DNA of 64,000 nt from a bacterium (lineage in GTDB: Bacteria; Chloroflexota; Dormibacteria; Aeolococcales; Bog-877), in contig JAJYET010000007.1 of NCBI GenBank assembly GCA_021785655.1, positions 8,267 through 72,266 on the forward strand, given 5' to 3'. Shown in pieces: positions 13,636 to 41,354 of this stretch. The notes beneath the pieces are model-generated. The model was given only the letters and a program-made list of their open reading frames with translations. It was not told the DNA's origin and ran no database searches. Both the position numbers and the translations under genes were made by a program. Numbering within the stretch: the stretch's first letter is position 1; every line of letters begins with the position of its first letter.

Positions 13636-13718
13636 CGGCCACCAGCCAGGGATGTGGACCTACGAAAGCAGACAGGTGGCTAGGCTGGGCTCGTCGATGA
13701 TAGCCGAAGAGGCCAGAA

Positions 13719-13979: not shown

Positions 13980-14138
13980 TGTCGCCGGACTTCCGCAGTT
14001 GGACGCTTCGAGTGAGCATGGCTGGGGGCCGAGTCGAAGTGAAGAAGGGTATCTCGGGCGGCTTCCGCGGCTGATCGACATAGCTACAATAGGCTTTGCT
14101 AACGGCCAGTCTATCCGGTAGGTACCTGGGAAGATGTA

Positions 14139-14861: not shown

Positions 14862-14868
14862 CCGAATC

Positions 14869-22722: not shown

Positions 22723-24171
22723 TCACCCGGGAACCGGGGCATGGGTGGCCGGCGAGGCGTATGCCGGCCCGGTCCCCGCCCCACCGACCTCCATCCAGCA
22801 GGTGCGGCAGGCCTCCACCACGAGGACCAGCGCGGCCACCGGCGTGAGGGACACCGCAAGCAGGTGGATTGGGTCCAGGACGGGGAAACAAGCCAATGTG
22901 AGCATCGCCAGCCCGGCGCCAAACCCGGTGAATCGCTGGTCCTCTCTGAAGCGCCAAAGAGCGACGGCCAGAACCGCCAGCGCCGACAAGCCCACCGGCC
23001 ACGGCACCACTCTCGCGGGCCAGGCCAGAAATACCAGAAGCACCACGCCCATGGCCAGCCACAGACCGGACCCGTGGAGCCGACGCACGTCCCGGCCCAG
23101 GGTCAGCACCAGGAGCGGCAGGAGCAGGAGGTCATCGTTGTTGTGGGCGTAGGGAGTCGAAGCGAGCCAGATGCCAACCGGCAGCGAGACGGCCCAGGAG
23201 ATCCGTCCGACCTCGGTGACCCCATTCCAGGAGGCGGAGGTCACCAGCCAGGCACCGAAGATCGCCATTCCCAGGAGGGCCAGTGAGACGACCGCCAACG
23301 TGCCCGGGGTCAGCAGGTGCCCGGTGAGGCCCCACGCCGCCGGGGCGGCCTGCTGGAGCGAGGGCAGTCCGGAGAGATTGGGCTGGGTGGTGCCGATCCC
23401 CGCGGAGAAGCGCACCAGCGCATGCCCCCAGGAGGCGAGCAGTCCCGGGTTGGCGAGGAATGCCCCCAGGGAGATGGCCACGAACCCGGTGGCGAACCAG
23501 GTGATCCGGCGACGGTCGGGCCAGAGTGCGAGGGCGAGGAAGATCGGGGCCGGCCAGAGGAGATCCGGCTTGAGCCAGAGAAAGCCCAGCACCAGTCCGG
23601 CGGCGAGTGGCCGGTGATGCCAGGCCAACAGCATCGCCCCCCCGAGTGCTGCCAGCAGGAAGGCGTCGACCTGTCCGAAGAGGAAACCCTGGAAGCTGAT
23701 CCAGGAGACGAGAGCCACGCCGGCGGTCAGTCGATCGTGGGACCAACCCAGGTCGCGCAAGAGGAACACCGTGACCACGCCAGCCGCGGCGGCGCCCAAA
23801 ACGGTGAGCACCACAAAGGCCACCCAGAACGGAAGGAGCGTGAGCGGCTCCAGGACCACCCCGGTGATGGGAAGGTAGGCAAAGTAGTTGAGAGCCGGCT
23901 GCTGATAGGGGTACCGGTCGGCTCGCTGAAGGAAGTGGAGCAGAACTTGGGGCGAGTAGGGGTCTTGGCCCGCAGCCATCGCCTTGGCCGCGCCGTAGAA
24001 GACTCGGAAGTCTGAGGCGAGCCCGTAGGCATGAGGAGGGAAGACCCTGATGAGGGCCAGGAGCACCATCCCCACCGACACCCCGATGACCAGGGCTAGG
24101 ACCAGGATCCGCGGCCACCGGCTCCGGCTCTCCAACAGCTCGTCGAGACTCGGCGCTGCCCCCCCACTCAC
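22723..24171 (-). CDS. Polytopic membrane protein, GT87/DUF2029-like; last gene of the Tad-containing operon
   Basis: The loop motif ASDFRVFYGAAKAMAAGQDPYS is the best PimE-like match in the window. GTG 24171 lies 7 nt after the ABC permease stop. The track ORF extension to 24372 overlaps that permease. Confidence 0.6.
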   Translation of the reverse strand: MSGGAAPSLDELLESRSRWPRILVLALVIGVSVGMVLLALIRVFPPHAYGLASDFRVFYGAAKAMAAGQDPYSPQVLLHFLQRADRYPYQQPALNYFAYLPITGVVLEPLTLLPFWVAFVVLTVLGAAAAGVVTVFLLRDLGWSHDRLTAGVALVSWISFQGFLFGQVDAFLLAALGGAMLLAWHHRPLAAGLVLGFLWLKPDLLWPAPIFLALALWPDRRRITWFATGFVAISLGAFLANPGLLASWGHALVRFSAGIGTTQPNLSGLPSLQQAAPAAWGLTGHLLTPGTLAVVSLALLGMAIFGAWLVTSASWNGVTEVGRISWAVSLPVGIWLASTPYAHNNDDLLLLPLLVLTLGRDVRRLHGSGLWLAMGVVLLVFLAWPARVVPWPVGLSALAVLAVALWRFREDQRFTGFGAGLAMLTLACFPVLDPIHLLAVSLTPVAALVLVVEACRTCWMEVGGAGTGPAYASPATHAPVPG

Positions 24172-24178
24172 CGGGCGC

Positions 24179-26686
24179 TCACTCCACGGCGAGCGCTTCG
24201 GTCGGATCCGTCCGGGCCAGCTGCCGGGCGGGAAGCACCGCAGCCAGCGCCAGCGCCAGCACCACCGCCACCGCCACCGCCAGCACCGCGGCCAGGGAGA
24301 CGCTGAAGGGGAGCGGGAGGTAGGGCGTGGAGGCCGCGGCGACCTCGGGGTAGACAAGTCCCACCCCGGCACCCACCCCCAGGACCGCTCCCAGGAGCGC
24401 GGTGGCGGCGGCCTGTCCGATCACGGCCCGGCCGAGCGCCGCCCGCCCCAGCCCCAGGACCCTGAGCAGGGCCAGCTCTCTGGTGGCCTCCCGGGTGTCC
24501 AGGACCACGGTGTCGACGGCGGCCAGGACCGCGATCACCACCCCCACCAGGGCCACCGAGGAGAGCAGGGCGATGTCGCCCTGGATCCCCCGATCCACCC
24601 CCTGCTGGACTGCGGCCACCGTCTCCGGCTGCATTCCGTAGCGGAATGCAGCCAGTCGCACGGCGGCGGCCGCGCCGGGACCGCTGGCCCGCAGCTGGAT
24701 CAGATTGAAGCCATCCGCCCCAGAACCGAAATCCCTCACCGCCGCGGCCCTGGAGATGACGACGCTCTCGACCCCCCCAGGCCCCGGGAGGGTGTGGGCG
24801 ACCACTCCCACCACCCGGAACCGTCCCCTTCCCCCCGCGGCGACCAAGTCGAGCACGGAGCCCGGGCCGGCGTGAACCGCCTGGGCGAGCTGGAGCGGGA
24901 TGATCACCCCCGACCCCCGCTCTGCCAGACGCAGAGCCTGCTCGCGCTGGCCCTCCACGAACTGCAGGGCCCCGCTGGCCCCGTAGGCGGGCAGGCTGGT
25001 GGCCGCAATCGTCACCGCTAGGTGGCCGGCGCGGGCGGGTAAGAACCTGATCGGAGCCACCTCCGAGACGCTGGGATGGCCGCTCGCCCGCCGCACCGCC
25101 GCCAGCAGCTGGGCCTCCACCTGGGAGCTCTGGACCACGGGGCCGACCACGAGATAGTTGCCCACGAACAGGCGGCCCACCCACAGGTTTCCGGAGAGGA
25201 GGGCGGAGGAGGTGATCCCCGCCAGGCTGGCCGCGGTGGCCATGGAGACGAAGAGGCTCCCCAGCGCCAGCGAGGTCCGGCCCGGCCGGGTCCTCGCCCG
25301 GGTGGCGACCGCCGCCACCGGCGCCACCAGCAGGCCCCCCACCACGGAGGCCAGGATGCCCACCAAGCGTGGGCCCTGCCAGCCCAGGAGGCAGAGCACG
25401 GCCGCATAGGTGAGGGTCGCCCCCAGCGCCACCCCCCAGCTTCCTCCGGCCGAGAACGCCACCGCCGCGCCCAGTGCTGCGAAGAGACCGACTAGGGGCC
25501 AGGCGCGCGCCCAGGTGCGGCTGCTGCGCCGGGGGCGCGGCCGCACCGCCTCCAGCGGGCGGGTCGTCGCCGCCTCGACCGCGGGCGCGAGAGAGGCCGC
25601 CAGCGCCAGCGCCACGGTGAGCAGCACGCTTCCCAGGGTCCACCCCCACTGGAAGCGGATCCCCACCCCGGGCGAGGAGCTGGTGGCGCTGGAGATCGCC
25701 ACCAGAACGGCAGCCAGCACGTATCCAGCCGCGGCTCCCAGGACCCCGCCCAGCAGCCCCACCGTCAGGGCCTCACGGATGAAGCTGCGAAACACCAGGG
25801 TGCGGCTGGCGCCGGCCAGGCGCGCCAGGCCGATCTCCCGGCGGCGCTCCAAGACCACAGACGACAGGGTGGCGCCGACCAGGGCCACCGCCAGGAGCAG
25901 GCTGAGGGCGGTCACCGCGTCCAGGACCGGAGCCAGCTGGGAGACCGGGTCCTGGCCCGCCGGGCGGGCCGCGCTCACCGTGAAGTCCTGGTGAAGGGCG
26001 GAGGGCAGCTCTCGGTCGAGGGCTCCCACGGTGGCTCCGGGGCGGAGCCGGACGGCGATCTCCTGGACCCCGAGCCCGGAGGCGAAGAGGCGCAGCGCGG
26101 TGGCGGACGTCACGTAGACTGCGTCGCCCGTGAACGGCGCCCCGGGGCCGGAGTCTGGTACCACCCCCACCACCCGGAACTTCCCCACGCCCCTGGACTC
26201 GGTGAGGCCGATGGACCCTCCGAGCCCGACCGCGCCGGATGCCCCCTGGCCGGTGGAGGCGGAGAACCCCGGGCTCAGCGACTGGCTGACCGCGACCACT
26301 TTCCCGGACCCCGGCCGACCGCCCCGCAGCAGGGGTAGCGGCCGCAGGGCCACCCCCTGCGGATAGACCACCACCAGCACCACCTGCTGGAAGCCCCCGC
26401 CCGGCAGCCGGGCCAGGTCCGCCTTGCTGGTCAGCAGGCCGACATCAGAGACCGCAGGGAGCTTCTGCACCGCGGCCACCTCGGAAGGAGAGAAGCCCGG
26501 CCGGCTGAACGGAGATATGTCGTACTGGGCGCGCCCGGCCGCAAGCTGGGCCGCACGCTCCGCCTGGGCGTGCAGGGCCGCCGCGGCCAGCTGGGTGCCG
26601 AGCACCGACGCCCCACCCAGAGCGAGCGCCGCGACCGCCAGCAGGAGCCTTGCCAGCGCCGAGCGCCGCCAGAGAAGGGGGATCAC
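24179..26686 (-). CDS. ABC transporter permease with two FtsX/MacB-type domains
   Basis: 835 aa. The unit TM - large extracytoplasmic domain - three-helix FtsX bundle occurs twice. GTG start lies 12 nt after the ATPase stop, with GGGGGA upstream. Confidence 0.8.
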   Translation of the reverse strand: MIPLLWRRSALARLLLAVAALALGGASVLGTQLAAAALHAQAERAAQLAAGRAQYDISPFSRPGFSPSEVAAVQKLPAVSDVGLLTSKADLARLPGGGFQQVVLVVVYPQGVALRPLPLLRGGRPGSGKVVAVSQSLSPGFSASTGQGASGAVGLGGSIGLTESRGVGKFRVVGVVPDSGPGAPFTGDAVYVTSATALRLFASGLGVQEIAVRLRPGATVGALDRELPSALHQDFTVSAARPAGQDPVSQLAPVLDAVTALSLLLAVALVGATLSSVVLERRREIGLARLAGASRTLVFRSFIREALTVGLLGGVLGAAAGYVLAAVLVAISSATSSSPGVGIRFQWGWTLGSVLLTVALALAASLAPAVEAATTRPLEAVRPRPRRSSRTWARAWPLVGLFAALGAAVAFSAGGSWGVALGATLTYAAVLCLLGWQGPRLVGILASVVGGLLVAPVAAVATRARTRPGRTSLALGSLFVSMATAASLAGITSSALLSGNLWVGRLFVGNYLVVGPVVQSSQVEAQLLAAVRRASGHPSVSEVAPIRFLPARAGHLAVTIAATSLPAYGASGALQFVEGQREQALRLAERGSGVIIPLQLAQAVHAGPGSVLDLVAAGGRGRFRVVGVVAHTLPGPGGVESVVISRAAAVRDFGSGADGFNLIQLRASGPGAAAAVRLAAFRYGMQPETVAAVQQGVDRGIQGDIALLSSVALVGVVIAVLAAVDTVVLDTREATRELALLRVLGLGRAALGRAVIGQAAATALLGAVLGVGAGVGLVYPEVAAASTPYLPLPFSVSLAAVLAVAVAVVLALALAAVLPARQLARTDPTEALAVE

Positions 26687-26698
26687 GGCCAGGTCCCC

Positions 26699-27493
26699 CT
26701 AGAGGCCATGGGCCGAGAGGCGCTCCAGCAGGGGGGCGGTGTCGTGGACGCTGCGGCGGCCCAGCTCCACGGTCTCGCGGATCTCCCCGTCCACCATGAT
26801 CGCCACGCGCTCCGCGTAGGCGGCGGTGCGCACGTCGTGGGTAACCATGACGATGGTGCGCTGGTCCTGGCGCGAGAGCCGCAGCAGCAGCTCCAGGACC
26901 GCGCGCCCCCCGTGGTAGTCCAGGGTGCCGGTGGGCTCGTCGGCCAGCACCACCGCCGGGTCGGCGACCAGGGCACGGGCCACCGCCACCCGCTGCTGCT
27001 CCCCCCCGGCGATCTCCTCCGGGCGGTGGCCCTGCAGCCCCCTCAGCCCGAGGAGGTTCATCACCTCCTCGGCCCGGTTGCGGGCGTCCCGGTCCCGTCC
27101 CAGCCCGCGCAGCGGCCAGACGCGCTCCCGCTCTAGGCGGTAGGGAAGCATCACGTTCTCGGCGGCGGTGAGGCTGGGCAACAGGTTGAAGAACTGGAAG
27201 ACGAAGCCGATCTGATTGCGCCGGAAGGCGGCCAGTTCCCGGTCGCTGAGCGCGTAGAGGTCCTGGCCCTGGATCCGCACCCGCCCCGAGGTGGGCTGGC
27301 TGAGCCCCCCCAGCATGTGCAGCAGCGTGGACTTGCCACAGCCGCTCGGCCCCATGACGGCGAAGAACTCTCCGCGGTGGACCTGGAGCGAGACCCCCCG
27401 CACCACCTCCCGAGGCGTCCTGCTGATGGCGTATGACTTGTGAAGGCCCTCGGCGTCCAGGACGGACGGCTGGGCCGCCTCCACCTCACTCAT
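26699..27493 (-). CDS. ABC transporter ATP-binding protein (MacB/LolD-like)
   Basis: Walker A GPSGCGKST, Q-loop FVFQFFNLL, atypical signature IAGGEQQRV, Walker B VVLADEPTGTLD, H-loop VTHD. Confidence 0.9.
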   Translation of the reverse strand: MSEVEAAQPSVLDAEGLHKSYAISRTPREVVRGVSLQVHRGEFFAVMGPSGCGKSTLLHMLGGLSQPTSGRVRIQGQDLYALSDRELAAFRRNQIGFVFQFFNLLPSLTAAENVMLPYRLERERVWPLRGLGRDRDARNRAEEVMNLLGLRGLQGHRPEEIAGGEQQRVAVARALVADPAVVLADEPTGTLDYHGGRAVLELLLRLSRQDQRTIVMVTHDVRTAAYAERVAIMVDGEIRETVELGRRSVHDTAPLLERLSAHGL

Positions 27494-28325
27494 CCAGATA
27501 GCCGCTGATCACCTGCTCGATGGTATTGGAGAGGAAGCCCCCCTGAGACCTCGGATAGCGCGCCTCCACGCCCCGCCGGGGTGGCCTCGGCTTGGGCGTG
27601 GGAGTGGGGGTCGGGGTGGCCGCGGGCGTGGGTGTGGGTGTGGGTGTGGGCGTGGCGTGGCTCCCGCCCGCCCCTCCGCCAGAGCTGGGCGGTGGCGGAG
27701 GCGGGGGCGGCGGTGCGGAGGCGGCGATCAGGGCGAACTCCTCGGCGAACATGTACACGTCGCTCCAGGGACCACCTCCGCTGCCGGGGTAGTTCCACTG
27801 CGCGGTGGTGTACCACGACCCCACCCCCAGGATGTTGTAGTCGCCGAGGATGTTGGCCCGGTGCGCGGGGGACGCCATGAAGGCGCTGTTGATGGCCACC
27901 GCCGGGCTGGCGTTCCCGGAGTTCCAGCCCACGTTCTCCCCCGCCGACCGCCAGGCGATCCCGTCGGCGGACATGATCGGCCACACATAGCCGCCATCGG
28001 CGCTGCAGCCGGGGATCTGGTGGGAGAAGTAGTCGCGGTTGAGCATGTCCGCGGCCCTCCCGTAGATCGGGGAGACGCTGCAACCGTAGTAGGGACGCGC
28101 CTCTCCGATCCCATCCAGGGTGGCGTTGTTGGCGAGCGCGCCCAGCCCGTTGCTGGTCCGGTCCTGGTTGACCAGGGAGAACAGCTCGCCGTCCAGGCCG
28201 GTGGGAGACCCGCTCTGGGCCAGGGCCGGGCGGAGACCCGGGCCCAGAAGCAGGAGGGCGGTGGCAGCGCCCAGGGCCGCCAGGAGCAGCCGGCCCCGGG
28301 GCAGGGGACGGGCGTGCCTAGCCAA
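27486..28325 (-). CDS. Secreted CAP/SCP (PR-1-like) domain protein with a Pro/Thr-rich C-terminal linker
   Basis: Signal-peptide-like N-terminus (LLLAALGAATALLLLGPGLRPALAQS). CAP motifs LVNQDRTSNGLGAL, DYFSHQ, AGENVGWN, SPAHRANILG..GVG. Then PPPPPPPP and a PTPTPTPTP run. Confidence 0.7.
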   Translation of the reverse strand: MARHARPLPRGRLLLAALGAATALLLLGPGLRPALAQSGSPTGLDGELFSLVNQDRTSNGLGALANNATLDGIGEARPYYGCSVSPIYGRAADMLNRDYFSHQIPGCSADGGYVWPIMSADGIAWRSAGENVGWNSGNASPAVAINSAFMASPAHRANILGDYNILGVGSWYTTAQWNYPGSGGGPWSDVYMFAEEFALIAASAPPPPPPPPPSSGGGAGGSHATPTPTPTPTPAATPTPTPTPKPRPPRRGVEARYPRSQGGFLSNTIEQVISGYLDE

Positions 28326-29505
28326 GCCGCCGCTGCAGGGGACCGGCGGGTGGGGTGGGCAGCCTGACCGCCGCCACCTGGTCGCCGCGGCGGTCGGGGA
28401 AGAGCCGGGAGATCTCGGGAGGCAGCGGCAGCCCCATGTCGAAGAGGCGATCGAGGATCTGGGGCCGGACGCCGGTCAGCTCGAGGGTGGTCTTGAGGTT
28501 GCCCTGGTTGTCCGCCCCCTCGGACTTCATGAGGAAGATGTCCTGCATGCTGATGGTCTCCCCCTCCATCCCCACCACCTCGCTGACGGCGGTGATCCGG
28601 CGGCTCCCGTCCCGGAGCCGATTGAGCTGGACCACGATGTTGATGGCGGAGGCGATCTGCTGGCGGATGGCCTTGCTGGGAAGCTCGATCCCTCCCATGA
28701 GGACCTGGGTCTCGAGCCGGGAGAGGCTGTCCCTGGGGGAGTTGGCGTGGACTGTGGTCATGGAGCCGTCGTGGCCGGTGTTCATCGCCTGGAGCATGTC
28801 CAGCGCCTCGCCACCGCGCACCTCCCCCACCACGATCCGGTCCGGGCGCATGCGCAGGGCGTTGATCACCAGGTCGCGGATGGCGATCCGGCCCTCGCCC
28901 CGGACGTCTGGGGGGCGGGACTCCAGCCGGCAGACATGCTCCTGGTGGAGCTGGAGCTCGGCGGCGTCCTCCACCGTTACGATGCGCTCGTCCGGGGGGA
29001 TGAAGCCGGAGCAGATGTTGAGCAGGGTGGTCTTCCCCGCCCCGGTGCCCCCGGAGATGAGGATGTTGGCCCGGGCCAGGACGCTGGCTTGGAGGAACGA
29101 GGCCGCGGCCTCGGTGATGGTACCGAAGTGGATCAGGTCGGTGATCCGCAGCCGCTCCTTGGCGAACTTGCGAATGGTGAGCATGGGCCCGTCGATGGCC
29201 ACCGGCGGGACCACGGCGTTGACCCGCGAGCCGTCCAGCAGGCGGGCGTCGCAGAGGGGCTGGCGGGTGTCGATCCGCCGCCCCACCGCGGAGACGATGA
29301 GGTCGATGACCTTGAGGAGATGCTCCTGATCCTTGAAGCGGACGTCGGTGAGCAGGATCCGGCCGTGCGCCTCCACGTACACCATGTCGGGGCCCACCAC
29401 CATGATCTCGGTCAAGTTGTCGTCCTCGACCAGGACCCGGAGGGGGCCGAGCGCCTGGAGGTATCCCTCCTGATCCGACGCGGCTTCGGCTTGTGACATC
29501 ACCAT
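28318..29505 (-). CDS. Second CpaF/TadA-family secretion ATPase (short form)
   Basis: 395 aa with Walker A GGTGAGKTT, RPDRIVVGEVRGGEA and NTGHDGSMTTVH. It aligns by eye along its length with the upstream CpaF but lacks that protein's N-terminal extension of about 120 aa. Confidence 0.9.
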   Translation of the reverse strand: MVMSQAEAASDQEGYLQALGPLRVLVEDDNLTEIMVVGPDMVYVEAHGRILLTDVRFKDQEHLLKVIDLIVSAVGRRIDTRQPLCDARLLDGSRVNAVVPPVAIDGPMLTIRKFAKERLRITDLIHFGTITEAAASFLQASVLARANILISGGTGAGKTTLLNICSGFIPPDERIVTVEDAAELQLHQEHVCRLESRPPDVRGEGRIAIRDLVINALRMRPDRIVVGEVRGGEALDMLQAMNTGHDGSMTTVHANSPRDSLSRLETQVLMGGIELPSKAIRQQIASAINIVVQLNRLRDGSRRITAVSEVVGMEGETISMQDIFLMKSEGADNQGNLKTTLELTGVRPQILDRLFDMGLPLPPEISRLFPDRRGDQVAAVRLPTPPAGPLQRRLG

Positions 29506-29509
29506 GGGG

Positions 29510-29950
29510 TTACTCCAAAGTCAGCTGGGGGTGGGGGGAGAGTCCGGGCACCGGGCGCAGAAGCAGCCGGGCTGGCAGGGAGAAGCCCATCCGCTCCAGC
29601 GTGCCGGGGGCCAGCTCCAAGGTGGAGCGGGCGCCCCGGACCGGCGAGAGGGTCACCGAGAAGGGACGCAGCGACCAGGGTCGCATCCGGGAGACCGAGC
29701 GCACCACCTCGCCCTCGGCGTCGAGGAAGAGAAGGTCGATGGCGGTGCGCATGAAGAACATGTGGATGCTCCGGCAGGGCACCAGCCAGATCCCCTCCCC
29801 CGCCGGCACCTCCCTCCTGCCCATCAGCCCGAGGAAGCGGCTCAAGAGCCCCCTGGCCACCCTCACCCGGGCGGCCAGCTGGCGGCCGTCGGGCAGGAGC
29901 ACCTCCACGACGTCCGCCCGCTCCGGCAGCGACCTTCGCTCAGCCGACAT
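29510..29950 (-). CDS. DUF192 (COG1430-like) domain protein
   Basis: 146 aa. The segment RGLLSRFLGLMGRREVPAGEGIWLVPCRSIHMFFMRTAIDLLFLD is the pattern I associate with DUF192. No signal peptide. Its start overlaps the tadC stop by 11 nt. Confidence 0.6.
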   Translation of the reverse strand: MSAERRSLPERADVVEVLLPDGRQLAARVRVARGLLSRFLGLMGRREVPAGEGIWLVPCRSIHMFFMRTAIDLLFLDAEGEVVRSVSRMRPWSLRPFSVTLSPVRGARSTLELAPGTLERMGFSLPARLLLRPVPGLSPHPQLTLE

Positions 29951-30860
29951 GGAAGAGCAGGTGGACCGCCGGCGGCCCCAGGAGGATCACGAACAGGGTC
30001 GGGAAGATGCAGCCAACCATGGGGAAGAGCATCTTTAGGCTGGCCTGCTGGGCCTTGGCCTCGGCGCGCTGCCGACGGCGCCGGCGGAGCTCGTCCGACT
30101 GGATGCGCAGCACCCGGGCGATGCCCACACCGAGCTGGTCAGACTGGACCAGCGCCTGGATGAAGGCGTTCAGCTCCGGAACCCCCGAGCGCTTGCCCAT
30201 CTCCTCGAGCGCCTCCTGCCGCGGCCGGCCCAGGCGGATCTCGTTGAGCACGAAGGCGAACTCCCGCGAGAGGGCGTTGTCGAACTTCTCCACCACCCGG
30301 TTGAGGGCGGCGTCGAAACCCAGTCCGGCCTCCACGCTGATGGTGAGCAGGTCCAGGCTGTTGGGAAGCGCCAGGGTGATCTCCTTCTGGCGGGCCGAGA
30401 CCGTGCGCTTCAGGAGGTACTGGGGAGTGATGTAGCCGAAGACCGCCCCGAAGAGCAGCCCCAGCCACCAGGTGAGGTTCAGCAGGATCGCCAGCCCGAT
30501 GCAGGCCAGGCCGAGGACCACCGCCAGCACCACCTGAATGGCCATCAGGCTGGCGGCGTTGATCCCCATGGGCCGCCCCGCGAGATCGATCATCACCTGC
30601 ACCTTCTGGGCCCGGTCGCGGGGCTGAAGGGCGGCCAGCCTCTTCCCTATGCGGTCGAAGAAGGGCCGCAGCACCCGCTCGCTGAAGGGGCGGGAGAGCT
30701 CGATCTGGTCCAGGGTCTGGTTGGCCTCGGGGGCCTCGTACACGGCCAGCCGGGCGTCCAGGAGGTCCACCGGGGCGGCGGTGCGCGAGGTCACCCCCAC
30801 CACCACCAAGAAGACGGCGACCGCCGCCAGGACCCCGACCAGGATGGCGTCAACCGACAT
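29940..30860 (-). CDS. tadC: Tad pilus inner-membrane platform protein TadC (T2SS-F family)
   Basis: 306 aa with an N-terminal TM, a cytoplasmic T2SSF-like helical domain (LPNSLDLLTISVEAGLGFDAAL) and C-terminal TMs. It is the second of two F-family genes after cpaF. Confidence 0.8.
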   Translation of the reverse strand: MSVDAILVGVLAAVAVFLVVVGVTSRTAAPVDLLDARLAVYEAPEANQTLDQIELSRPFSERVLRPFFDRIGKRLAALQPRDRAQKVQVMIDLAGRPMGINAASLMAIQVVLAVVLGLACIGLAILLNLTWWLGLLFGAVFGYITPQYLLKRTVSARQKEITLALPNSLDLLTISVEAGLGFDAALNRVVEKFDNALSREFAFVLNEIRLGRPRQEALEEMGKRSGVPELNAFIQALVQSDQLGVGIARVLRIQSDELRRRRRQRAEAKAQQASLKMLFPMVGCIFPTLFVILLGPPAVHLLFHVG

Positions 30861-30863
30861 GGC

Positions 30864-31874
30864 TCAGACCTCGATGTTGGAGATGCGCTGCATGATGTAG
30901 TAGGCGACGGCGATAGAGCAGGCGCAGACGATGAGGATGTACGGCCCCGGGCCCTTGAAGGTGAGCAGGGGGGCGATGTACTGGGGGTTGATGGCCTGCA
31001 GGACCAGCGCCAGGCCGATCGGCAGCCCGGTGATGATGTAGCTGGAGGCCCTCGCCTGAGCGGTCAGGGTCCGGATCTCGCCCTTGATGCGGATCCGTTC
31101 CCGAATGGTGAAGGCGATGTTGTCCAGGATCTCGGCGAGGTTCCCGCCGACGACCCGCTGGATCTGGACCGCGGTGACCACGAGGTCCAGGTCCTCGGAG
31201 CGGATCCGGGTGACCATGTGGGAGAGCGCCTCGTCGGTGTTGACCCCCAGCTGGATCTCCCGGTTGGCCCGGGAGAACTCCTCGGCCACGGGTGGGTTGG
31301 CCGAACGCGCCACGCTGGCCATCGCCTGGGGGAAGCTGTACCCGGCCTTCAGGGCGTTGCTGAGCAGCACCAGGACGTCACCCAGCTGATCGTTGAAGCG
31401 GCGGGAGCGCCGGCGCTCCCGAAAGCGAAGGACCAGGGGTGGGATGAAGACCCCCACCACCGCCAGGATGGCGGCGAAGATGAGGTTGCGGTAGACGGCC
31501 AGCCCGATCAGGGCCAGGAGCCCCACCGAGCCCACCCGGATCAGGTACCACTCCGCGGGGCGGAGCTTGAGGTCGGCACGCCCCAGCGCCTCGGAGATGG
31601 CCGCCGAGCGCCCGCGCTGGCTGGCCAGCACCTGGGCCCCGGTGCGCCCGCCGCCCCTGAGCCGGCCGAGCAGGCGGGTGATAGGTCCTTGGGCGCCGGA
31701 CTCCCCGTCCTCCGGAACGCTGATCACCAGCCCCGCCCCCGCCTCCGCGAATCGGCGGACGCGCTCGTCCAGGTCGGCCTCGCGGCTCTTGGTGCGGGCC
31801 AGCCCCACGGCGGCGATGGCGGCGAAGACCGCCAGCGCCCCCAGGGCGTCAAAGAAGATGGGCAGGGCGCTCAT
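30864..31874 (-). CDS. tadB: Tad pilus inner-membrane platform protein TadB (T2SS-F family)
   Basis: 336 aa with T2SSF-like core LGDVLVLLSNALKAGYSFPQAM. ATGA overlap with the cpaF stop. Confidence 0.8.
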   Translation of the reverse strand: MSALPIFFDALGALAVFAAIAAVGLARTKSREADLDERVRRFAEAGAGLVISVPEDGESGAQGPITRLLGRLRGGGRTGAQVLASQRGRSAAISEALGRADLKLRPAEWYLIRVGSVGLLALIGLAVYRNLIFAAILAVVGVFIPPLVLRFRERRRSRRFNDQLGDVLVLLSNALKAGYSFPQAMASVARSANPPVAEEFSRANREIQLGVNTDEALSHMVTRIRSEDLDLVVTAVQIQRVVGGNLAEILDNIAFTIRERIRIKGEIRTLTAQARASSYIITGLPIGLALVLQAINPQYIAPLLTFKGPGPYILIVCACSIAVAYYIMQRISNIEV

Positions 31875-33409
31875 GCGGCGCTGTCCGCGGCTGAGGGCTG
31901 GGGGTCGTGGAAGATCGCGGGGTCCACCGGCTCGCCCATCGCCTTGAGGTCGGGGAGGGACTTGGGCTCGGCGACGGCGTGGAAGCCGCCGATCACCCGG
32001 CCGTCGTCGTCCAGCCCCTCCTGCTGGTACACGAAGATGTCCTGGAGCAGCACCTTCTCCCCGTCGAAACCCTGGACCTCCGAGATGGCCACCACGCGCC
32101 GGCTGCCGTCCCGGAGCCTGGCCTGCTGGACGATGATGTTGATCGCCGCGGCGATCTGCTCGCGGATGGCCCGCGAGGGAAGGTCGGCGCCGGCCATGAG
32201 CACCATGGTCTCGAGCCGGGAGAGGGTGTCCTGGGGGCTGTTGGAGTGGACGGTGGTGAGCGAGCCGTCGTGACCGGTGTTCATGGCCTGGAGCATGTCC
32301 AGCGCCTCACCGCCCCGGCACTCCCCCACCACGATCCGGTCGGGGCGCATCCGGAGGGAGTTGATCACCAGCTCCCGGATCCCGATCCGCCCCCGGCCCT
32401 CGATGTTGGCCGGCCGGGACTCAAGGGTCACCACGTGGTCCTGGTGGAGCTGTAGCTCGGCGGAGTCCTCGATGGTCACGATCCGCTCGTCGTCGGGGAT
32501 CCAGCCCGAGAGCACGTTCAAGGTCGTCGTCTTTCCTGACCCGGTGCCCCCAGCCACCACCAGGTTCTGGCGGCCGCGGACGCAGGCCCTGAGGAACGTG
32601 GCCATCTCCTGGGTCAGGGTCCCGAACTCGACCAGGTTGTCGATGGTGAAGGGGTCCTTGCTGAAGCGCCGGATGGTGAGGGTGGGGCCCTTGAGGGCCA
32701 ACGGGGGGATGATCACGTTCACCCGGGAGCCGTCCCGGAGGCGGGCGTCCACCATGGGGGAGCTCTCGTCCACTCTCCGTCCGACCGAGCTGACGATCCT
32801 GTCGATGATCTGCATGAGGTGGTCGTTGGAGTCGAAGTGGGCGGGGTAGCGGTGGATCCGCCCCTGGCGCTCCACATAGATCTGGTCGGGGCCGTTGACC
32901 ATGATCTCGGTGATGTCGGGGTTCTTGAGCAGCAGCTCCAGCGGCCCCAGGCCCAGGATGTCGTTGACGATCTGCTCCACCAGCCGCTGCCGGTCGTTGC
33001 GGGTGATGGAGATACTCAGGTCCTCCAGCACCGCCCCGGTGAGCTCCCCGATCTTGGCGACCAGGGTGTCGCGGGGAGCCTTGGAGACGTCGGAGTACTC
33101 CTCCAGGAGAGCCTGCGTCACCTGGGACTTGATGACCGAGTACTGGGGGTGGGTGGTGTGGCGCTGCTCTTGCTGGCGCGCACTCTCCGCCCGCTCCCGC
33201 CAGCCGGGCCCTGCCGCCGGGGCGGCCGCCTTGGCGGCCGGGCTCGGGGCCGCGGCCTGACGCTGCGCCTCCTGCTTCTCCGCGGCCTCGGTGACCGCGC
33301 CGGCCAACCTGGAGCCCTGGGGCGCCGGCGGAGAGGCGGGGCCGGCGGCCGGGGCTCCGGTCTCGGCCTCCGTCTCGCCCTGGTTGCGGACCCGCTCAAG
33401 CAGTGACAT
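31871..33409 (-). CDS. cpaF: Tad pilus secretion ATPase CpaF/TadA (long form)
   Basis: 512 aa with an Ala/Pro-rich N-terminal extension, Walker A GGTGSGKTT, RPDRIVVGECRGGEA and NTGHDGSLTTVH. Confidence 0.9.
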   Translation of the reverse strand: MSLLERVRNQGETEAETGAPAAGPASPPAPQGSRLAGAVTEAAEKQEAQRQAAAPSPAAKAAAPAAGPGWRERAESARQQEQRHTTHPQYSVIKSQVTQALLEEYSDVSKAPRDTLVAKIGELTGAVLEDLSISITRNDRQRLVEQIVNDILGLGPLELLLKNPDITEIMVNGPDQIYVERQGRIHRYPAHFDSNDHLMQIIDRIVSSVGRRVDESSPMVDARLRDGSRVNVIIPPLALKGPTLTIRRFSKDPFTIDNLVEFGTLTQEMATFLRACVRGRQNLVVAGGTGSGKTTTLNVLSGWIPDDERIVTIEDSAELQLHQDHVVTLESRPANIEGRGRIGIRELVINSLRMRPDRIVVGECRGGEALDMLQAMNTGHDGSLTTVHSNSPQDTLSRLETMVLMAGADLPSRAIREQIAAAINIIVQQARLRDGSRRVVAISEVQGFDGEKVLLQDIFVYQQEGLDDDGRVIGGFHAVAEPKSLPDLKAMGEPVDPAIFHDPQPSAADSAA

Positions 33410-33432: not shown

Positions 33433-34659
33433 CTAGCGCCGCAGGCTGAACCGGTGGCCGGCCTGGGGCTTGGACTCCAGCTTGATCTCCGACGCTGGCT
33501 CGGCGGCCGGATCCAGGCTCCGGGCCAGGGCCTTGAAGAGCGAGGTCAGCTCGGCGTCCGGGTTGCCCACCACGACAGGGACCGCCCGGTGGATGGAGCC
33601 CCCCACCAGCCGCGGCTCCGAGGGCAGCTGCACCCGGACCGGGAATTTTAGGTTGCGCTCGATGCTGGGGGAGTCGTAGACGGCGTGGGCATCGTGCCCA
33701 TTGATCACCACCACGATCCGGTCGCGCTCCACCCGGAGCGACTCCAGGGTCTTCAGCATGAGGCGGGTGTCCTTAATGGCGGGGATGGTGAGCTGGCCGA
33801 CGACGACGATCCGGTCGGCGGCGTCAACCACTTCCAGGGCAGCTTCCGACAGCTGGCTCGCCGTGTCGACCACGACCCAGTCAAACTCTCGTCGCAATAT
33901 GTCAACGAGGGAGCGCACGTGCTCGGCCCGCACCAGGTCCCCGTACTCGGGGCTGAAGGGGCCAAGAAGCACCCGCAACCCCAGGGGGCCGTCCGCCAGC
34001 ACGTCGTCCACGAACTCCCAATCGGGCTGGGACTCGCCGTCCACCAGCTCGGTGATGGTCTTGGCGTGGTCCAGGTTGAGCATGACGCCGACATCCCCGA
34101 ACTGCAGGTCCAGGTCGACCAGGCACACCCTGGTTGAGGTCTCGGCCCGGAGCGCCAGCGCCAGGTTGACGGCCACGACGCTCTTGCCGCTGCCCCCCTT
34201 GCCGCTCAGCACCGTCACCAGCCTGCCCCGGGAGGGTGGCTGCTCCGCCTCGGCCCCGGCTGCCGCCTTGGGAAGGTAGGCGCCCTTCTTGGACTCCAGC
34301 TCGTAGACCCGGCGGATGCTGGCCACCAGCTCGTCCCCGGTGAAGGGCTTGATGAGGAACTCCCGGGCCCCGGACTGCATCGCCCGGCGGAGGTAGTCGC
34401 GCTCCCCCTGGACCGACATGATCACCACCGGGCACTGGGGCAGCTCCACCGCCAGCTGCTCGGTGGCGCTGATCCCGTCCATGCCCGGCATGTTGACGTC
34501 CATCAGCACCACGTGCGGCTGGAGCCGGCGGATCACCTCGAGCCCTTCCTTGCCGTCCCCGGCGTCGCCGACCACCTCGATGTCCTCCTCGAAGGAGAGG
34601 AGCTTCTTGAGGTTCTCCCGGGTGGAGGGGATGTCGTCCACCACCACCACCCGGATCAC
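33433..34659 (-). CDS. cpaE: Response-regulator receiver domain fused to a CpaE/TadZ-type MinD/ParA ATPase
   Basis: The REC domain has acidic pocket VVVDD, phospho-acceptor context VVLMDVNMPGMDG, and LIKPF lysine. It is followed by the deviant Walker A SGKGGSGKS of the MinD/ParA fold. Confidence 0.85.
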   Translation of the reverse strand: MIRVVVVDDIPSTRENLKKLLSFEEDIEVVGDAGDGKEGLEVIRRLQPHVVLMDVNMPGMDGISATEQLAVELPQCPVVIMSVQGERDYLRRAMQSGAREFLIKPFTGDELVASIRRVYELESKKGAYLPKAAAGAEAEQPPSRGRLVTVLSGKGGSGKSVVAVNLALALRAETSTRVCLVDLDLQFGDVGVMLNLDHAKTITELVDGESQPDWEFVDDVLADGPLGLRVLLGPFSPEYGDLVRAEHVRSLVDILRREFDWVVVDTASQLSEAALEVVDAADRIVVVGQLTIPAIKDTRLMLKTLESLRVERDRIVVVINGHDAHAVYDSPSIERNLKFPVRVQLPSEPRLVGGSIHRAVPVVVGNPDAELTSLFKALARSLDPAAEPASEIKLESKPQAGHRFSLRR

Positions 34660-34714: not shown

Positions 34715-35869
34715 TCAACCGATGTTGATGCCGAAGAGACTCTGCAGCATCTGCGGGCTGCCCTGGCTCACCGAGCTGCTGGACGCCGAGCCCGCCGCGG
34801 TGGCACCGCAGTAGAGCACGGATCGGTCCGACTGCACCAGGTTCTGGGACTGGATCAGCGCGAACTGATCCTGGGCCAGGGTTGCGGCATCGGCCAGCAC
34901 CAGCTGCTTGGCGGTCGTCTCGTTGGGGCTGCCCGAGGGCAGCGACTGCAGGGTGGTGTTGTCCTTGTTGTACTGCTTCTGGGCCTCGGAGTAGGTCTTG
35001 CTGGCCGCGGTCACGGCCTGCTGGGCCTGCTGCAGGTCCTCCTCGATGATGGGGTTCACCGAGGTTCCCGGGGTGCAGGCCTGGGAGTAGTTGTCGGCCG
35101 GGGAGATGGTGGTGGGGATGTAGCCGTGGCCGTAGTCGGCGGCCGAGCGCAGCGCCACGGTGTAGATGGCCCCGCCCTTCTCCAGCTCCTCGATCCCCAG
35201 CGCCTGGCTGCGGGTCACCTGGAGCACCACCAGCCCACCGCCGGCGGAGGAAGCCGCCTGACCGGTGGTCGAGGGGCTGCCGATGCCCAGAACCAAGAGG
35301 TCCTGGTAGGTGAAGCCGACATTGCCGTTGGAGCCGGTGGAGATGAAGTCGATCCGGTCACCCGCCTGGAGATAACCCGCCACCGCCTGCTGCGAGGTGA
35401 GCGGGATGGCGATGGCCACGTCCCCGGGCGGAAGGTTGAGGCTGCCGAACGACGGCGTCTGGGTGACCTTGTTGGGCGACACCAGGGTGCCGGTGATCAC
35501 GGTGTTGGCGGCGATCGGAACCACGGCGTAGTAGTCCAGGGTGGTGGAGGTGGTCGCCGGCTGGCTCACCTGGACCCCGGAGCTCTCGGAGCAGGCGGCG
35601 CCCACCAGCCTCTGACAGGAGGTGTAGGCGTTGGCCGGGAGCAGCCCCTTGATCCGGGTCAGCTCCAGCATCCCCGGGGTGATGAGGGTCCCGCTGGGGA
35701 TGGACACCCTCGCCACCACGACCAGGGTCCCGTTGGCCGGGATCGCCGGCTTGGGGGGGGTGGCGCTGGCGCGGGTGAAGTAGTAAGCGAGCCCGAAGGC
35801 GGCGATAGCGCAGATCAGCCCGACGGCGATCCAGACCTGATTGACCCGTCCTTTCAAATCGGTCGACAC
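34715..35869 (-). CDS. cpaB: Flp pilus assembly protein CpaB/RcpC-like, with a Gln-rich C-terminal extension of about 120 aa
   Basis: N-terminal TM anchor, then a SAF-like segment VVVARVSIPSGTLITPGMLE and an RcpC-like beta domain. GTG start with GGAGG about 10 nt upstream. Confidence 0.7.
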   Translation of the reverse strand: MSTDLKGRVNQVWIAVGLICAIAAFGLAYYFTRASATPPKPAIPANGTLVVVARVSIPSGTLITPGMLELTRIKGLLPANAYTSCQRLVGAACSESSGVQVSQPATTSTTLDYYAVVPIAANTVITGTLVSPNKVTQTPSFGSLNLPPGDVAIAIPLTSQQAVAGYLQAGDRIDFISTGSNGNVGFTYQDLLVLGIGSPSTTGQAASSAGGGLVVLQVTRSQALGIEELEKGGAIYTVALRSAADYGHGYIPTTISPADNYSQACTPGTSVNPIIEEDLQQAQQAVTAASKTYSEAQKQYNKDNTTLQSLPSGSPNETTAKQLVLADAATLAQDQFALIQSQNLVQSDRSVLYCGATAAGSASSSSVSQGSPQMLQSLFGINIG

Positions 35870-35919
35870 CGTGGATAACCTCCGAGATAAGACGCCGGCG
35901 GGGCCGGCAGGGGGAAGCG

Positions 35920-35963: not shown

Positions 35964-36164
35964 TTACTGAAGCCCGTTCTGGATGTTGTTGAAGACGTCG
36001 CTGACCCGGTGACCGACGATGGCCAGGACAACGATCACGACGATGGCGATGAGTACCAGAATCAGGGCGTACTCGACCATACCCTGCCCCTCTTCCTCCG
36101 CGTCACGGCCAGTCAGCGCCTCGGTGAGGCGGCTGCGCAGCCGCAGGTACCAAGAACTCAGCAT
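35964..36164 (-). CDS. flp: Flp-family type IVb pilin precursor
   Basis: This is the last 66 codons of track ORF 35964..37277. ATG 36164 has GGAGG upstream. The sequence MLSSWYLRLRSRLTEALTGRDAEEEG/QGMVEYALILVLIAIVVIVVLAIVG carries the Flp G/xxxxEY processing motif and a hydrophobic core. The mature peptide is about 40 aa. Confidence 0.85.
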   Translation of the reverse strand: MLSSWYLRLRSRLTEALTGRDAEEEGQGMVEYALILVLIAIVVIVVLAIVGHRVSDVFNNIQNGLQ

Positions 36165-36316: not shown

Positions 36317-37483
36317 TCAGCCGGCCTGCCCCTGGATCAGCTGCTGCAGGGCCCGGAGGTAGGTGGAGCCGTAGTGCAGACTGGGCTGGAAGTAGGTGTT
36401 CTCCTCGAACTCGTTCCAGCTGATCCCAAACCACCCCTGGGGGTGGCTCTGAGAGTTCACGCCCCAAACCTTGTCCAGGGTCTGGACCCCGTCCCGGGGC
36501 ACGCAGGAGCCGCCCACCAGCTGCTTGTCGTACCCGGGGATGAAGGGCGCGAACCAGCTCTTGCCGCTGCTGTGCACCTCGGCCCCCAGGGTCTGGATGT
36601 CGGTGGTGGCGTTGGAGTTGGTCCAGGGGTTCTCGGAGGACCAGTAGTAGGAGGTCGCGTCGAGGTAGGGGGCATCCCGAGCCCAGCTGCCGGCGGTCTC
36701 GTCGCCGATGAGGTACTCCCTTCCTCCCTCGGAGTTCCAGATGGCGGCCACGGTGGTGACTGGGTACTTGCGGCTGTCCATGATCATCACCATCGGCCGT
36801 GAGCTGAAGGAGTTGCGGAAGGCGGGATTGCCGCGGTAGGTGCGGTAGAAGTAGGAGAGGTCGGCGATGATCTCCGCCGCCGGGCGGTGGTAGTCCCCGA
36901 AGGCCGACATCGCCAGGGCCAGGCGGAAGGGGTGCTGGGGATGGGCGGCGTCGTAGGTGTCCACCGCCCTCACAAGCAGCTGAAGACGCAGGTTGTACCC
37001 CGAGGAGTCGGTGGTCTGGGTCGGGCTGCCGGTGCCCTGCCAGCTGGCCAGGAACCCCGTGACCCCGGCGGCCGCCGCCTGCTCGATCTGGGGCAGGTAG
37101 ACCTGGGCCTGATTCTGGTTGTAGAGCCCGACCTGAGGCACGTCCACGATGGTGGACCCGGAGTACCTGGGCACCGGGTTGCAGCCCGCGGAATTGGTGG
37201 CGCCCGGAGTGACTGGCGGTCGGGCCGCGTAGGGGTAGTCCGGTCCCAGCTTGGACTGCCAGTGTCCAGGGGTCCACCAGAGGTAGTAGTAGAGGTACAC
37301 CGGCGGCGCCGAACCCGATGGGGCGGCAGCTGGAGAGGTACCCTCGGGGCTCGGGGTGGGGCGCACGTGGGGGTGGGGCGCGCCCCGCGCCCCCGCCTCC
37401 CTCAGGGCCACCAGCGTGGCGACCGCCAGCACCGAGACAGCGAGCAGGGCCACCGCGGTCACGAGCAGCCGCAGCCGCATCAC
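36317..37483 (-). CDS. Signal-anchored glycoside hydrolase, GH99-like (putative endo-alpha-mannosidase-type) domain
   Basis: 388 aa with an N-terminal TM/signal. Motifs YLYYYLWWTPGHW, GFLASWQG, FAPFIPGYD and GISWNEFEENT. The last parallels the SFNEWHEGT catalytic-glutamate segment I recall for GH99. The assignment is from memory and not searched. Confidence 0.45.
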   Translation of the reverse strand: MMRLRLLVTAVALLAVSVLAVATLVALREAGARGAPHPHVRPTPSPEGTSPAAAPSGSAPPVYLYYYLWWTPGHWQSKLGPDYPYAARPPVTPGATNSAGCNPVPRYSGSTIVDVPQVGLYNQNQAQVYLPQIEQAAAAGVTGFLASWQGTGSPTQTTDSSGYNLRLQLLVRAVDTYDAAHPQHPFRLALAMSAFGDYHRPAAEIIADLSYFYRTYRGNPAFRNSFSSRPMVMIMDSRKYPVTTVAAIWNSEGGREYLIGDETAGSWARDAPYLDATSYYWSSENPWTNSNATTDIQTLGAEVHSSGKSWFAPFIPGYDKQLVGGSCVPRDGVQTLDKVWGVNSQSHPQGWFGISWNEFEENTYFQPSLHYGSTYLRALQQLIQGQAG

Positions 37484-41283: not shown

Positions 41284-41354
41284 CCGTCCCGGACCTCCTC
41301 TGTGGCCACGGCTTTCGAACCCCTGGCGAGCGGACCCCAAGTCGCGGCTGGTGA

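Follow-up and report, generated by a model that had tools for sequence, protein, structure and literature searches.

Two CpaF paralogs in a Dormibacterota Tad pilus locus and a possible division of pilus extension and retraction between them

Why would a single Tad pilus operon encode two motor ATPases? How one CpaF hexamer both extends and retracts a pilus is debated, with a nucleotide switch and a physical inversion of the ring as competing answers, and a lineage that splits the job across paralogs would be a direct handle on this question. The 64,000-nucleotide stretch of contig JAJYET010000007.1 analysed here (the window) contains a monoderm-type Tad (type IVc) pilus locus of Candidatus Dormibacterota. 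A first-pass annotation of the sequence had described two intact CpaF-family ATPases in its pilus operon, around tadB, tadC and a DUF192 gene, and both the coordinates and Pfam matches confirm them; we call them CpaF-1 and CpaF-2. Its remark that Tad systems typically have a single motor agrees with the literature (PMC6920026, PMC12019362, PMC11300603). We show below that the two paralogs are old and differ in which conserved surface residues they keep, and we weigh what this pattern may mean for how the pilus moves.

We asked whether both proteins are genuine CpaF ATPases. Each has the PilT/VirB11-type core (PF00437 at 1e-58 to 1e-66), and the match of the pair to the family is far above chance. 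TIGR03819 (TadA family conjugal transfer-associated ATPase, model name heli_sec_ATPase) is the best NCBIfam model for both, at 333.7 bits for CpaF-1 and 305.5 bits for CpaF-2 against a cut-off of 373.15, which we did not take as defining CpaF membership. The setting is that of CpaF/TadA, with TadB/TadC platform genes, a TadZ/CpaE ATPase and an Flp pilin all encoded alongside. Against the type IVa motor models both proteins score 50-63 bits for TIGR01420 pilT_fam (cut-off 319; CpaF-2, 50.5 versus 319.1) and 36-44 bits for the pilB model (cut-off 676). CpaF-1 carries the motifs GGTGSGKTT, RPDRIVVGECRGGEA and NTGHDGSLTTVH, and CpaF-2 carries GGTGAGKTT, RPDRIVVGEVRGGEA and NTGHDGSMTTVH; the Walker A, RPDRIVVGE[CV]RGGEA and NTGHDGS[LM]TTVH boxes listed in the first pass are read directly in both. 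For comparison across the family, we numbered the alignment by Caulobacter CpaF and checked it on C196, G204-D208, R217, R223, K287, E331, R347, E357 and H382. Walker A K287, Walker B E357, the arginine finger R347 and the loop-8 residues G204, R205, R206 and D208 are invariant in both clades, as is the equivalent of H382. Both paralogs are intact and have a complete set of catalytic residues.

The two proteins differ sharply in architecture. BLASTP aligns CpaF-1 residues 154-499 with CpaF-2 residues 19-365 at 208/347 identities (60%), offsets that make the CpaF-2 N-terminus about 135 residues shorter, where the first pass had estimated about 120, and leave C-terminal tails that are unlike, as it had also noted; an in-frame stop upstream limits the CpaF-2 open reading frame (ORF) to 395 aa. 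CpaF-1 consists of a disordered region, a three-helix bundle, an N-terminal domain (NTD) and the ATPase domain. Its extension combines an Ala/Pro-rich disordered part with a part that aligns with the three-helix bundle of Caulobacter CpaF, and the whole is missing from CpaF-2, which has just ~18 residues (one helix in the predicted model) ahead of the NTD and neither a disordered region nor a three-helix bundle. CpaF-1 matches the PDB sequence of Caulobacter CpaF at E = 2.1e-128 over residues 21-478 (Caulobacter residues 11-472), and FlaI/GspE at only ~1e-40. The predicted model of CpaF-2, made from a shallow alignment, of moderate confidence (predicted local distance difference test, pLDDT, 72) and used for secondary structure, likewise finds Caulobacter CpaF (8RJF/9E24, 49-50% identity) as its best structural match, with structural E-values of 1.6e-39 for CpaF, 1e-22 for FlaI and 1e-10 for PilT. 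A survey of 292 orthologues defined the minimal CpaF architecture as three-helix bundle, NTD and ATPase domain (PMC12019362); CpaF-1 has it and CpaF-2 does not. Of 133 single-domain relatives, only 7 have an NTD preceded by 25 or fewer residues, and three or more of these seven begin inside the core and look truncated. The two-domain architecture without an N1 domain is a PilT-like trait of CpaF-2. The PilT motif AIRNLIRE is absent from the CpaF-2 sequence; its structural equivalent in CpaF is the beta13-beta14 turn (bioRxiv 10.64898/2026.02.24.707734). Many relatives of both proteins also carry a weak match to PF27713 (UCP018868).

Is the short copy merely a decaying duplicate? The first-pass annotation had named a recent duplicate under relaxed selection as the outcome that would undo its proposal. 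The best 120 database clusters for CpaF-2 are 72-100% identical and 376-398 aa long, and the named ones are almost all from Dormibacterota, with a few under other labels. In four pairwise comparisons of orthologous loci, its ratio of non-synonymous to synonymous substitution (dN/dS), at 0.045-0.10, is below those of the other seven operon genes compared; the same comparisons give 0.06-0.25 for CpaF-1 and 0.21-0.38 for DUF192. A neighbour-joining tree of 200 CpaF cores (those of the window, 27 from loci that we fetched, 150 that represent clusters at 50% identity, and that of Caulobacter CpaF) recovers a monophyletic CpaF-1 clade (bootstrap 85) and a monophyletic CpaF-2 clade (bootstrap 92), which are sisters in 1 of 100 bootstrap replicates. 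The mean distance from CpaF-1 to CpaF-2 (0.56) exceeds that from CpaF-1 to the single CpaFs of Chloroflexia (0.44-0.46). CpaF-2 is therefore old, lineage-wide in Dormibacterota and more strongly constrained by purifying selection than any other gene of the operon; its separate clade, constant length and lowest dN/dS rule out a recent duplicate or pseudogene. The tree places CpaF-2 beside other long branches (P0290, P0283), a grouping that may reflect long-branch attraction, and the paralog may have arisen by ancient duplication with asymmetric divergence or by transfer. Among the short CpaF relatives P0290, P0317, P0318 and P0269, the contigs are either single-ATPase or too short, and no second arrangement of this kind was found.

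To pinpoint where the paralogs diverge, we scanned without bias for positions that at least 70% of 169 other CpaF cores conserve, that one paralog keeps (at least 80%) and that the other has lost (at most 10%). Nine positions qualified. Six have been lost by CpaF-2 (R198, E209, V214, L231, N329 and E331) and three by CpaF-1, R387 among them. Four of the six CpaF-2 losses fall in alpha5 (189-200), loop 8 (201-212) and the extended pore loop (325-337), the elements that Yen et al. assign to the ATPase-platform interface in the extension orientation (PMC12019362). These elements hold 16 of 164 conserved positions, so that the enrichment has a hypergeometric P of 8e-4.

The contrast holds across the 120 CpaF-2 and about 106 CpaF-1 clusters. 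Position 198 is R in all CpaF-1 clusters but one (K) and in no CpaF-2 cluster, where it is L in 117; E209 is present in all of the former and none of the latter. At 329 every CpaF-1 has N and every CpaF-2 (120/120) D, and at 331 E is universal in CpaF-1 and found in 0/120 of CpaF-2 (R 114, N 3, H 2, S 1). Position 387 shows the reverse: R in 119/120 CpaF-2 clusters, and in CpaF-1 R once, K twice and otherwise A, S, Q, T, H, N, G, V or Y. The C-terminal motif splits in the same way as position 387, with a column entropy of 0.32 in CpaF-2 (TGVRPQILDRLFDMG..., nearly invariant) versus 1.67 in CpaF-1, where it is degenerate and its TG is lost. So does the beta13-beta14 turn, whose location we confirmed on the CpaF-2 predicted model: CpaF-2 keeps the family consensus GMEGE, and CpaF-1 is variable, most commonly F-D-G-E. 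Read from these alignments, the paralogs appear to have lost opposite faces of the hexamer, CpaF-1 the retraction side and CpaF-2 the extension side.

What these losses may do is suggested by mutagenesis in Caulobacter, which has linked the same regions to extension (E331, the first 146 residues) or to retraction (R387, the C-terminal face). The E331K/G332A/S333A/G334A and D208K mutants abolish extension, and deletion of CpaF residues 1-146 abolishes phage infection, the read-out of pilus function, in a mutant whose expression was undetected in vivo (PMC11300603). R387A pili fail to retract, as do those of cells in which an mCherry fusion obstructs the CpaF C-terminal face (bioRxiv 10.64898/2026.02.24.707734). 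The same preprint proposes an inversion model, in which the CpaF N-terminal face on the platform gives extension and the inverted ring retraction, and notes that three elements are degenerate in single-orientation Tad motors: the N-terminus of alpha11, the beta13-beta14 turn and the C-terminal motif. CpaF-1 and CpaF-2 differ in these same three. Judged by the Caulobacter phenotypes, CpaF-1 resembles a natural retraction-deficient allele, and CpaF-2, with its retraction face retained, a natural extension-deficient one.

We regard it as evenly balanced whether CpaF-1 and CpaF-2 are a dedicated extension/retraction pair on one TadB/TadC platform, convergent with PilB/PilT. The first pass had offered three functions (such a pair, a hetero-hexamer, or a motor for a second substrate), and the reciprocal, face-specific loss of residues favours the first, which is our preferred explanation. 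In such a pair, the single bifunctional CpaF would have been replaced by two specialised paralogs on a common platform: CpaF-1 would dock by its N-terminal face and drive extension, CpaF-2 would dock by its C-terminal face and drive retraction, and the PilB/PilT logic of type IVa pili would have been reached independently within the CpaF family. The inversion model would predict docking of CpaF-1 by the N-terminal face only and of CpaF-2 by the C-terminal face only. We infer the face that each paralog uses, and presumably the two form separate homo-hexamers and the pili of this Dormibacterota retract. The broader statement, that Dormibacterota re-invented a two-motor solution within the Tad/CpaF lineage by splitting the faces of an inverting bifunctional ATPase between paralogs, we advance tentatively and with slightly less than even confidence.

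Does CpaF-2 belong with the pilus genes at all? To place it, we used a DUF192 alignment to search a single genome of each species and annotated the 80 resulting loci with the window's proteins. CpaF-2 is present in 17 loci, and it occurs together with the tad core in 13 of the 13 where both are visible (the window and 12 others). The tad core lies between the histidine kinase side of the backbone and DUF192 in all 10 loci with enough upstream sequence, as well as in L083, L084 and the window. The CpaF-2-CAP-ABC-MacB block sits between DUF192/ComF and SecA; a CAP/YkwD-like gene comes after CpaF-2 in 16/17 loci, and ABC and FtsX genes in 14/17 each. A further 32 loci, nearly all from Dormibacterota with a few labelled Chloroflexia or other, have the backbone of histidine kinase (31/32), DUF192, sometimes a dienelactone hydrolase, sometimes a ComF-like gene, and SecA without any CpaF, and lack both the CpaF-2 block and the tad core. 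No second platform gene was found; the only T2SSF genes nearby are tadB and tadC. The tad blocks flank a resident DUF192-(ComF) unit and are present or absent together, which supports a functional tie of CpaF-2 to the tad core rather than to DUF192.

DUF192 had been put forward in the first pass as a candidate partner of CpaF-2, because its stop lies 4 nt before the cpaF-2 start. The junction itself is as described: the stop TAA (29512-29510) is followed by CCCC and then by the cpaF-2 ATG at 29505, with GGAG immediately upstream of this ATG. The adjacency, though, is confined to the window's own subclade. A ComF-like gene lies between DUF192 and cpaF-2 in 8/17 CpaF-2 loci, and in ten loci of other phyla (Chloroflexia, Bacillota, Gaiellales and others) DUF192 lies close to a tad locus with one CpaF. 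Together with the 32 CpaF-less loci, this synteny leads us to reject DUF192 as a dedicated CpaF-2 partner; it is a resident backbone gene embedded in the operon and, as far as the evidence goes, outside the mechanism. Its match to the family is above threshold (PF02643, 58.7 bits against a gathering cut-off of 27). Its AlphaFold2 model (pLDDT 83) matches 3PJY (E = 1.2e-07) and 3M7A (2.8e-06) in Foldseek, with template modelling scores of ~0.65-0.73; a PDB sequence search returned nothing, and the fold search returned just these two structural-genomics DUF192 entries, of no known function. Judged by title or abstract, none of the papers found to mention DUF192 looked relevant to pili. To our knowledge, no function is known for any DUF192 member.

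The ComF-like gene is a feature of this neighbourhood in its own right. It follows DUF192, whose usual neighbour it is, in 39/81 loci; the two are often no more than 50 nt apart, and SecA usually comes next (for example L012 10429-11082, L041 10467-11147 and L049 11535-12173, and many of L010-L078), and the order DUF192-ComF-SecA appears to be conserved across Dormibacterota and Chloroflexia. The product of the ComF-like gene, a putative double zinc ribbon with a phosphoribosyltransferase, has ComF (TIGR00201) and GntX as best NCBIfam models at 69-102 bits, far under the cut-offs of 234 and 304, and falls below threshold in Pfam as well (DZR_2 26.1 versus 27; Pribosyltran 18.7 versus 26.3). 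ComF has no match anywhere in the window, whose subclade has lost the gene from this slot.

Several observations weigh against an extension/retraction pair. CpaF-2 has acquired new conserved residues on its N-terminal face (L198, R210, D329 and mostly R331), which would fit a new binding partner, and 33 of the 169 other CpaFs have neither R nor K at 387 with no second motor there. In L083 and L084, opposite-strand genes part tadC from DUF192-ComF-cpaF-2-CAP-ABC-MacB, which places cpaF-2 in a separate transcription unit in those loci. L028 and L029 have no tad gene within the 5.7 kb and 3.6 kb of upstream sequence available. The RNA runs searched contained essentially nothing of the locus and gave no transcript support. 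From the experimental side, Hohl et al. found that deletion of the disordered N-terminus lowers retraction (PMC11300603); that region therefore promotes retraction, and a missing N-terminus does not simply equal a retraction motor. Finally, the inversion model comes from a 2026 preprint based mostly on AlphaFold3 models and Caulobacter mutants (bioRxiv 10.64898/2026.02.24.707734).

The arrangement around CpaF-2 suggests an alternative, in which it serves a process other than piliation, either ComF-linked DNA uptake or CAP/ABC-MacB export, by way of its remodelled N-terminal face. The genes that follow it almost always encode the CAP protein and the transporter, a ComF-like gene precedes it in nearly half of its loci, its block is split from the tad core in L083 and L084, and natural transformation in Micrococcus luteus requires Flp pili (PMC4322843). 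Yet PilT/VirB11-type ATPases use a T2SSF-type platform, for which only tadB and tadC are at hand, and the ABC transporter already has its own ATPase. The best-conserved surface of CpaF-2 is moreover the assigned platform contact, formed by R387, the turn and the C-terminal motif. ComF occurs in 19 loci and DUF192 in 32 without CpaF-2, so neither depends on it, and there is no CpaF-2 block where the tad core is missing. We consider this role unlikely, at about one chance in five by our reckoning of the evidence.

Less probable still is an alternating 3:3 CpaF-1/CpaF-2 hetero-hexamer on TadB3:TadC3, with each paralog specialised for one platform protein. Published models build the platform from three CpaG-CpaH heterodimers and set one ATPase subunit under each platform subunit (PMC12019362; PMC11300603), the trans-acting R347 and the GRR-D loop are kept in both paralogs, and several of the N-face changes in CpaF-2 are new conserved residues. 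In such a ring, however, neither face would be complete: one half would lack the three-helix bundle and the other R387 and the C-terminal motif. CpaF-1 varies at position 387 and CpaF-2 at position 209, a pattern that looks more like absent constraint than new specialisation, and cpaF-1 and cpaF-2 lie in different transcription units in L083 and L084. Fused tandem CpaF-CpaF proteins in other lineages mean that mixed rings are possible in the family, but these lack the reciprocal pattern, their second domain having lost both E331 and R387. We think this arrangement improbable.

The tandem proteins are a different route to a mixed ATPase ring. Polypeptides with two or three complete CpaF cores occur in public metagenomes (P0241, 1156 aa; P0243-P0250; P0287; P0393-P0401; P0416), and L085 10001-12457 is the locus of one. 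P0416, from a Roseiflexaceae genome, is a tandem CpaF after which come a VWA protein and a T2SSF gene. P0246 and P0249 have a canonical first core and a second one that lacks E331 and R387 while keeping the catalytic residues.

That CpaF-2 is a brake or regulator that competes for or caps the platform, or a condition-specific alternative extension motor, is very unlikely: it comes from the same platform-binding family, adjoins the tad genes and has lost extension-interface residues, but its invariant catalytic residues and lowest operon dN/dS argue for an active enzyme and not a passive plug, and an extension role conflicts with its loss of E331, R198 and the three-helix bundle, changes that abolish pilus function in Caulobacter.

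How would an extension/retraction pair sit with what is known of Tad motors? A survey of type IV filaments found ATPase paralogy in type IVa pili only (PMC6668835), and the 2026 preprint distinguishes three motor classes, with Tad as the single-inverting class (bioRxiv 10.64898/2026.02.24.707734). Our literature search turned up neither a Tad locus with a second, N1-less CpaF paralog nor any paper on pili in Dormibacterota. A Sinorhizobium 'CpaF2' appears in a paper that reportedly concerns separate type IVc pili, one set encoded on the chromosome and the other on pSymA. The search suggests that a Tad system with two specialised CpaF paralogs is an arrangement not described for this pilus type. 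If the pair is real, it would be a natural separation-of-function experiment, with CpaF-1 corresponding to an R387-less mutant and CpaF-2 to an N1-less, E331-less one; it would add a fourth arrangement beside the three proposed motor classes of type IV filaments, and a convergent evolution of a retraction motor. It would also imply retractile pili in an uncultured phylum of soil bacteria, and the ComF-like neighbour makes DNA uptake one possible use for them. This would be the first functional hypothesis for the surface behaviour of Dormibacterota; the phylum is widespread, and here it is represented by metagenome-assembled genomes alone.

Table 1. Features of the pilus operon, in window coordinates, from the pilin gene to the MacB/FtsX permease
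Feature	Position	Strand	Basis
Flp-type pilin, 66 aa, ...EEGQG/MVEYALILVLIAIVV...	35964-36164	-	read directly from sequence
GC-rich hairpin with T-rich tail, between pilin gene and rcpC	35893-35909	-	pattern scan and sequence
RcpC/CpaB-like protein, SAF and RcpC domains	34715-35869	-	Pfam RcpC 1.2e-09, SAF
Response-regulator receiver fused to CpaE/TadZ-type ParA/MinD ATPase	33433-34659	-	Pfam Response_reg 1e-29; AAA_31, ParA, CbiA
CpaF-1, 512 aa, ATG start, full-length Tad motor ATPase	31871-33409	-	T2SSE 6.5e-66
CpaF-1 N-terminal extension, residues 1-~151	32957-33409	-	alignments with CpaF-2 and Caulobacter CpaF
CpaF-1 NSPQD at the Caulobacter P386-R387 position, R to Q	32228-32242	-	
TadB/CpaG-type platform protein, 336 aa	30864-31874	-	T2SSF 2.2e-19
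TadC/CpaH-type platform protein, 306 aa	29940-30860	-	T2SSF 7.4e-20
DUF192 protein, 146 aa	29510-29950	-	PF02643 6.4e-16
CpaF-2, 395 aa, ATG start, short Tad-type ATPase (NTD and ATPase domain only)	28318-29505	-	T2SSE 1.6e-58
CpaF-2 alpha5/loop 8 equivalent VIDLIVSAVGRRIDTRQP; R198 to L, E209-S210-S211 to T-R-Q, G-R-R-x-D kept	29257-29310	-	
CpaF-2 extended pore (central) loop SRPPDVRGEGRIA; N329 to D, E331 to R	28882-28920	-	
CpaF-2 NSPRD, Caulobacter R387 equivalent kept	28729-28743	-	
CpaF-2 C-terminal motif TGVRPQILDRLFDMGLPLPPEISRLF, strand and two helices in the predicted model	28399-28476	-	
Secreted CAP/YkwD-like protein, Pro/Thr-rich tail	27486-28325	-	TIGR02909 9.6e-16
ABC transporter ATPase	26699-27493	-	ABC_tran 2.1e-35
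MacB/FtsX-type permease, 835 aa, two FtsX domains	24179-26686	-	FtsX 3.7e-28

The operon consists of eleven tightly packed minus-strand genes that overlap or lie no more than 55 nt apart, from the Flp pilin to the MacB/FtsX permease (Table 1). The Tad core components TadA, TadB, TadC, TadZ and Flp pilin and the accessory RcpC are all present. Pilin orthologues in L001, L083 and L084 are small genes with Pfam Flp_Fap. The only intergenic terminator-like hairpin found by pattern scan lies just past the pilin gene and is a candidate attenuator or terminator; the boundary between pilin and machinery is the usual attenuator site, letting pilin exceed the machinery in amount. The RcpC/CpaB-like protein scores 69.1 bits against TIGR03177, slightly below the cut-off of 71. 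The tadB start overlaps the cpaF-1 stop by 4 nt. The start of the CAP/YkwD-like gene overlaps the cpaF-2 stop, and its orthologues show a faint Pfam CAP match; the L084 orthologue of the permease has MacB_PCD. Among the 44 distinct predicted window proteins, Pfam identified no prepilin peptidase TadV/CpaA, TadE/TadF minor pilin, secretin or TadD, small ORFs lying outside the scan. The prepilin peptidase may be encoded elsewhere, and the lack of a secretin near the operon fits a monoderm-type machine. The G+C content of the window is 64-74%, the nearest relatives of its proteins are all labelled Candidatus Dormibacterota/Dormibacteria, and the locus was found in DNA runs from mine drainage, soil and sediment metagenomes.

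Two large secreted proteins are encoded directly upstream of the pilin gene (36317-37483 and 38032-41358). The 388-aa protein has a weak WbsX-like C-terminus, and the 1108-aa protein has a purple-acid-phosphatase N-domain, FN3 and three C-terminal repeats of a ~130-aa module; both occupy the same position in L003 and are missing from remoter tad-bearing loci. The window also encodes five GT87-family glycosyltransferase paralogs (382-1659, 15792-17228, 20078-21331, 21547-22677 and 22723-24372), three of them clustered between the MacB permease and SecA, and GT2 and PMT-type glycosyltransferases upstream of the pilus operon (44041-45669, 47424-48944 and 56881-57720). The region 10584-15795 has a G+C content of 0.64-0.65 versus ~0.70 and carries plus-strand ORFs. 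Two of these are large (451 aa and 571 aa), match nothing in Pfam and are followed by a GT2 glycosyltransferase and a methyltransferase; the region may be a horizontally acquired cell-envelope cassette. A release-factor gene at 9237-10154 (PCRF and RF-1) begins at PCRF profile position 49 with TTG as its only start, which would be consistent with a programmed +1 frameshift, as is typical of prfB, and an initial exon upstream in another frame.

How, then, does the locus compare with known systems? The DUF192 protein, which has no signal peptide or transmembrane segment, shares its predicted fold with 3PJY and 3M7A (COG1430/UPF0127); its subfamily differs from DUF192/COG1430 in having no signal peptide, in the pattern GLMGR...SIHMFFMR...D and in the histidine kinase-DUF192-ComF-SecA setting. 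For the ATPases, the nearest system is that of Caulobacter crescentus CpaF and Aggregatibacter TadA (PDB 9E24, 8RKD). With the Caulobacter system, both window proteins share the catalytic motifs, the NTD and ATPase core, and TadB/TadC, TadZ-like, RcpC and Flp neighbours. Caulobacter has one CpaF and the window two; relative to it, CpaF-1 lacks R387 and has a degenerate C-terminal face, and CpaF-2 has neither disordered region nor three-helix bundle and carries L198, T209, D329 and R331. Unlike the Caulobacter and Aggregatibacter systems, the window yielded no secretin, TadD or prepilin peptidase.

The likeness to PilB and PilT of type IVa pili lies in the layout. There too, two paralogous hexameric ATPases share one platform; the proposed extension motor is lengthened by an N-terminal domain, while a short NTD and ATPase unit makes up the proposed retraction motor; and modelling places conserved platform-contact surfaces on opposite faces (bioRxiv 10.64898/2026.02.24.707734). 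Neither window protein, however, belongs to the PilB or PilT clade, and AIRNLIRE is lacking. With the duplication inside the archaeal-derived CpaF/TadA branch and PilB/PilT model scores so far below threshold, any functional likeness would be convergent. The closest parallel to CpaF-1 on its own is the extension-only Tad motor of the Corynebacterium diphtheriae type (Whitfield et al. 2026), whose three degenerations it shares. Those systems have no second ATPase, whereas the window adds a paralog that keeps all three elements.

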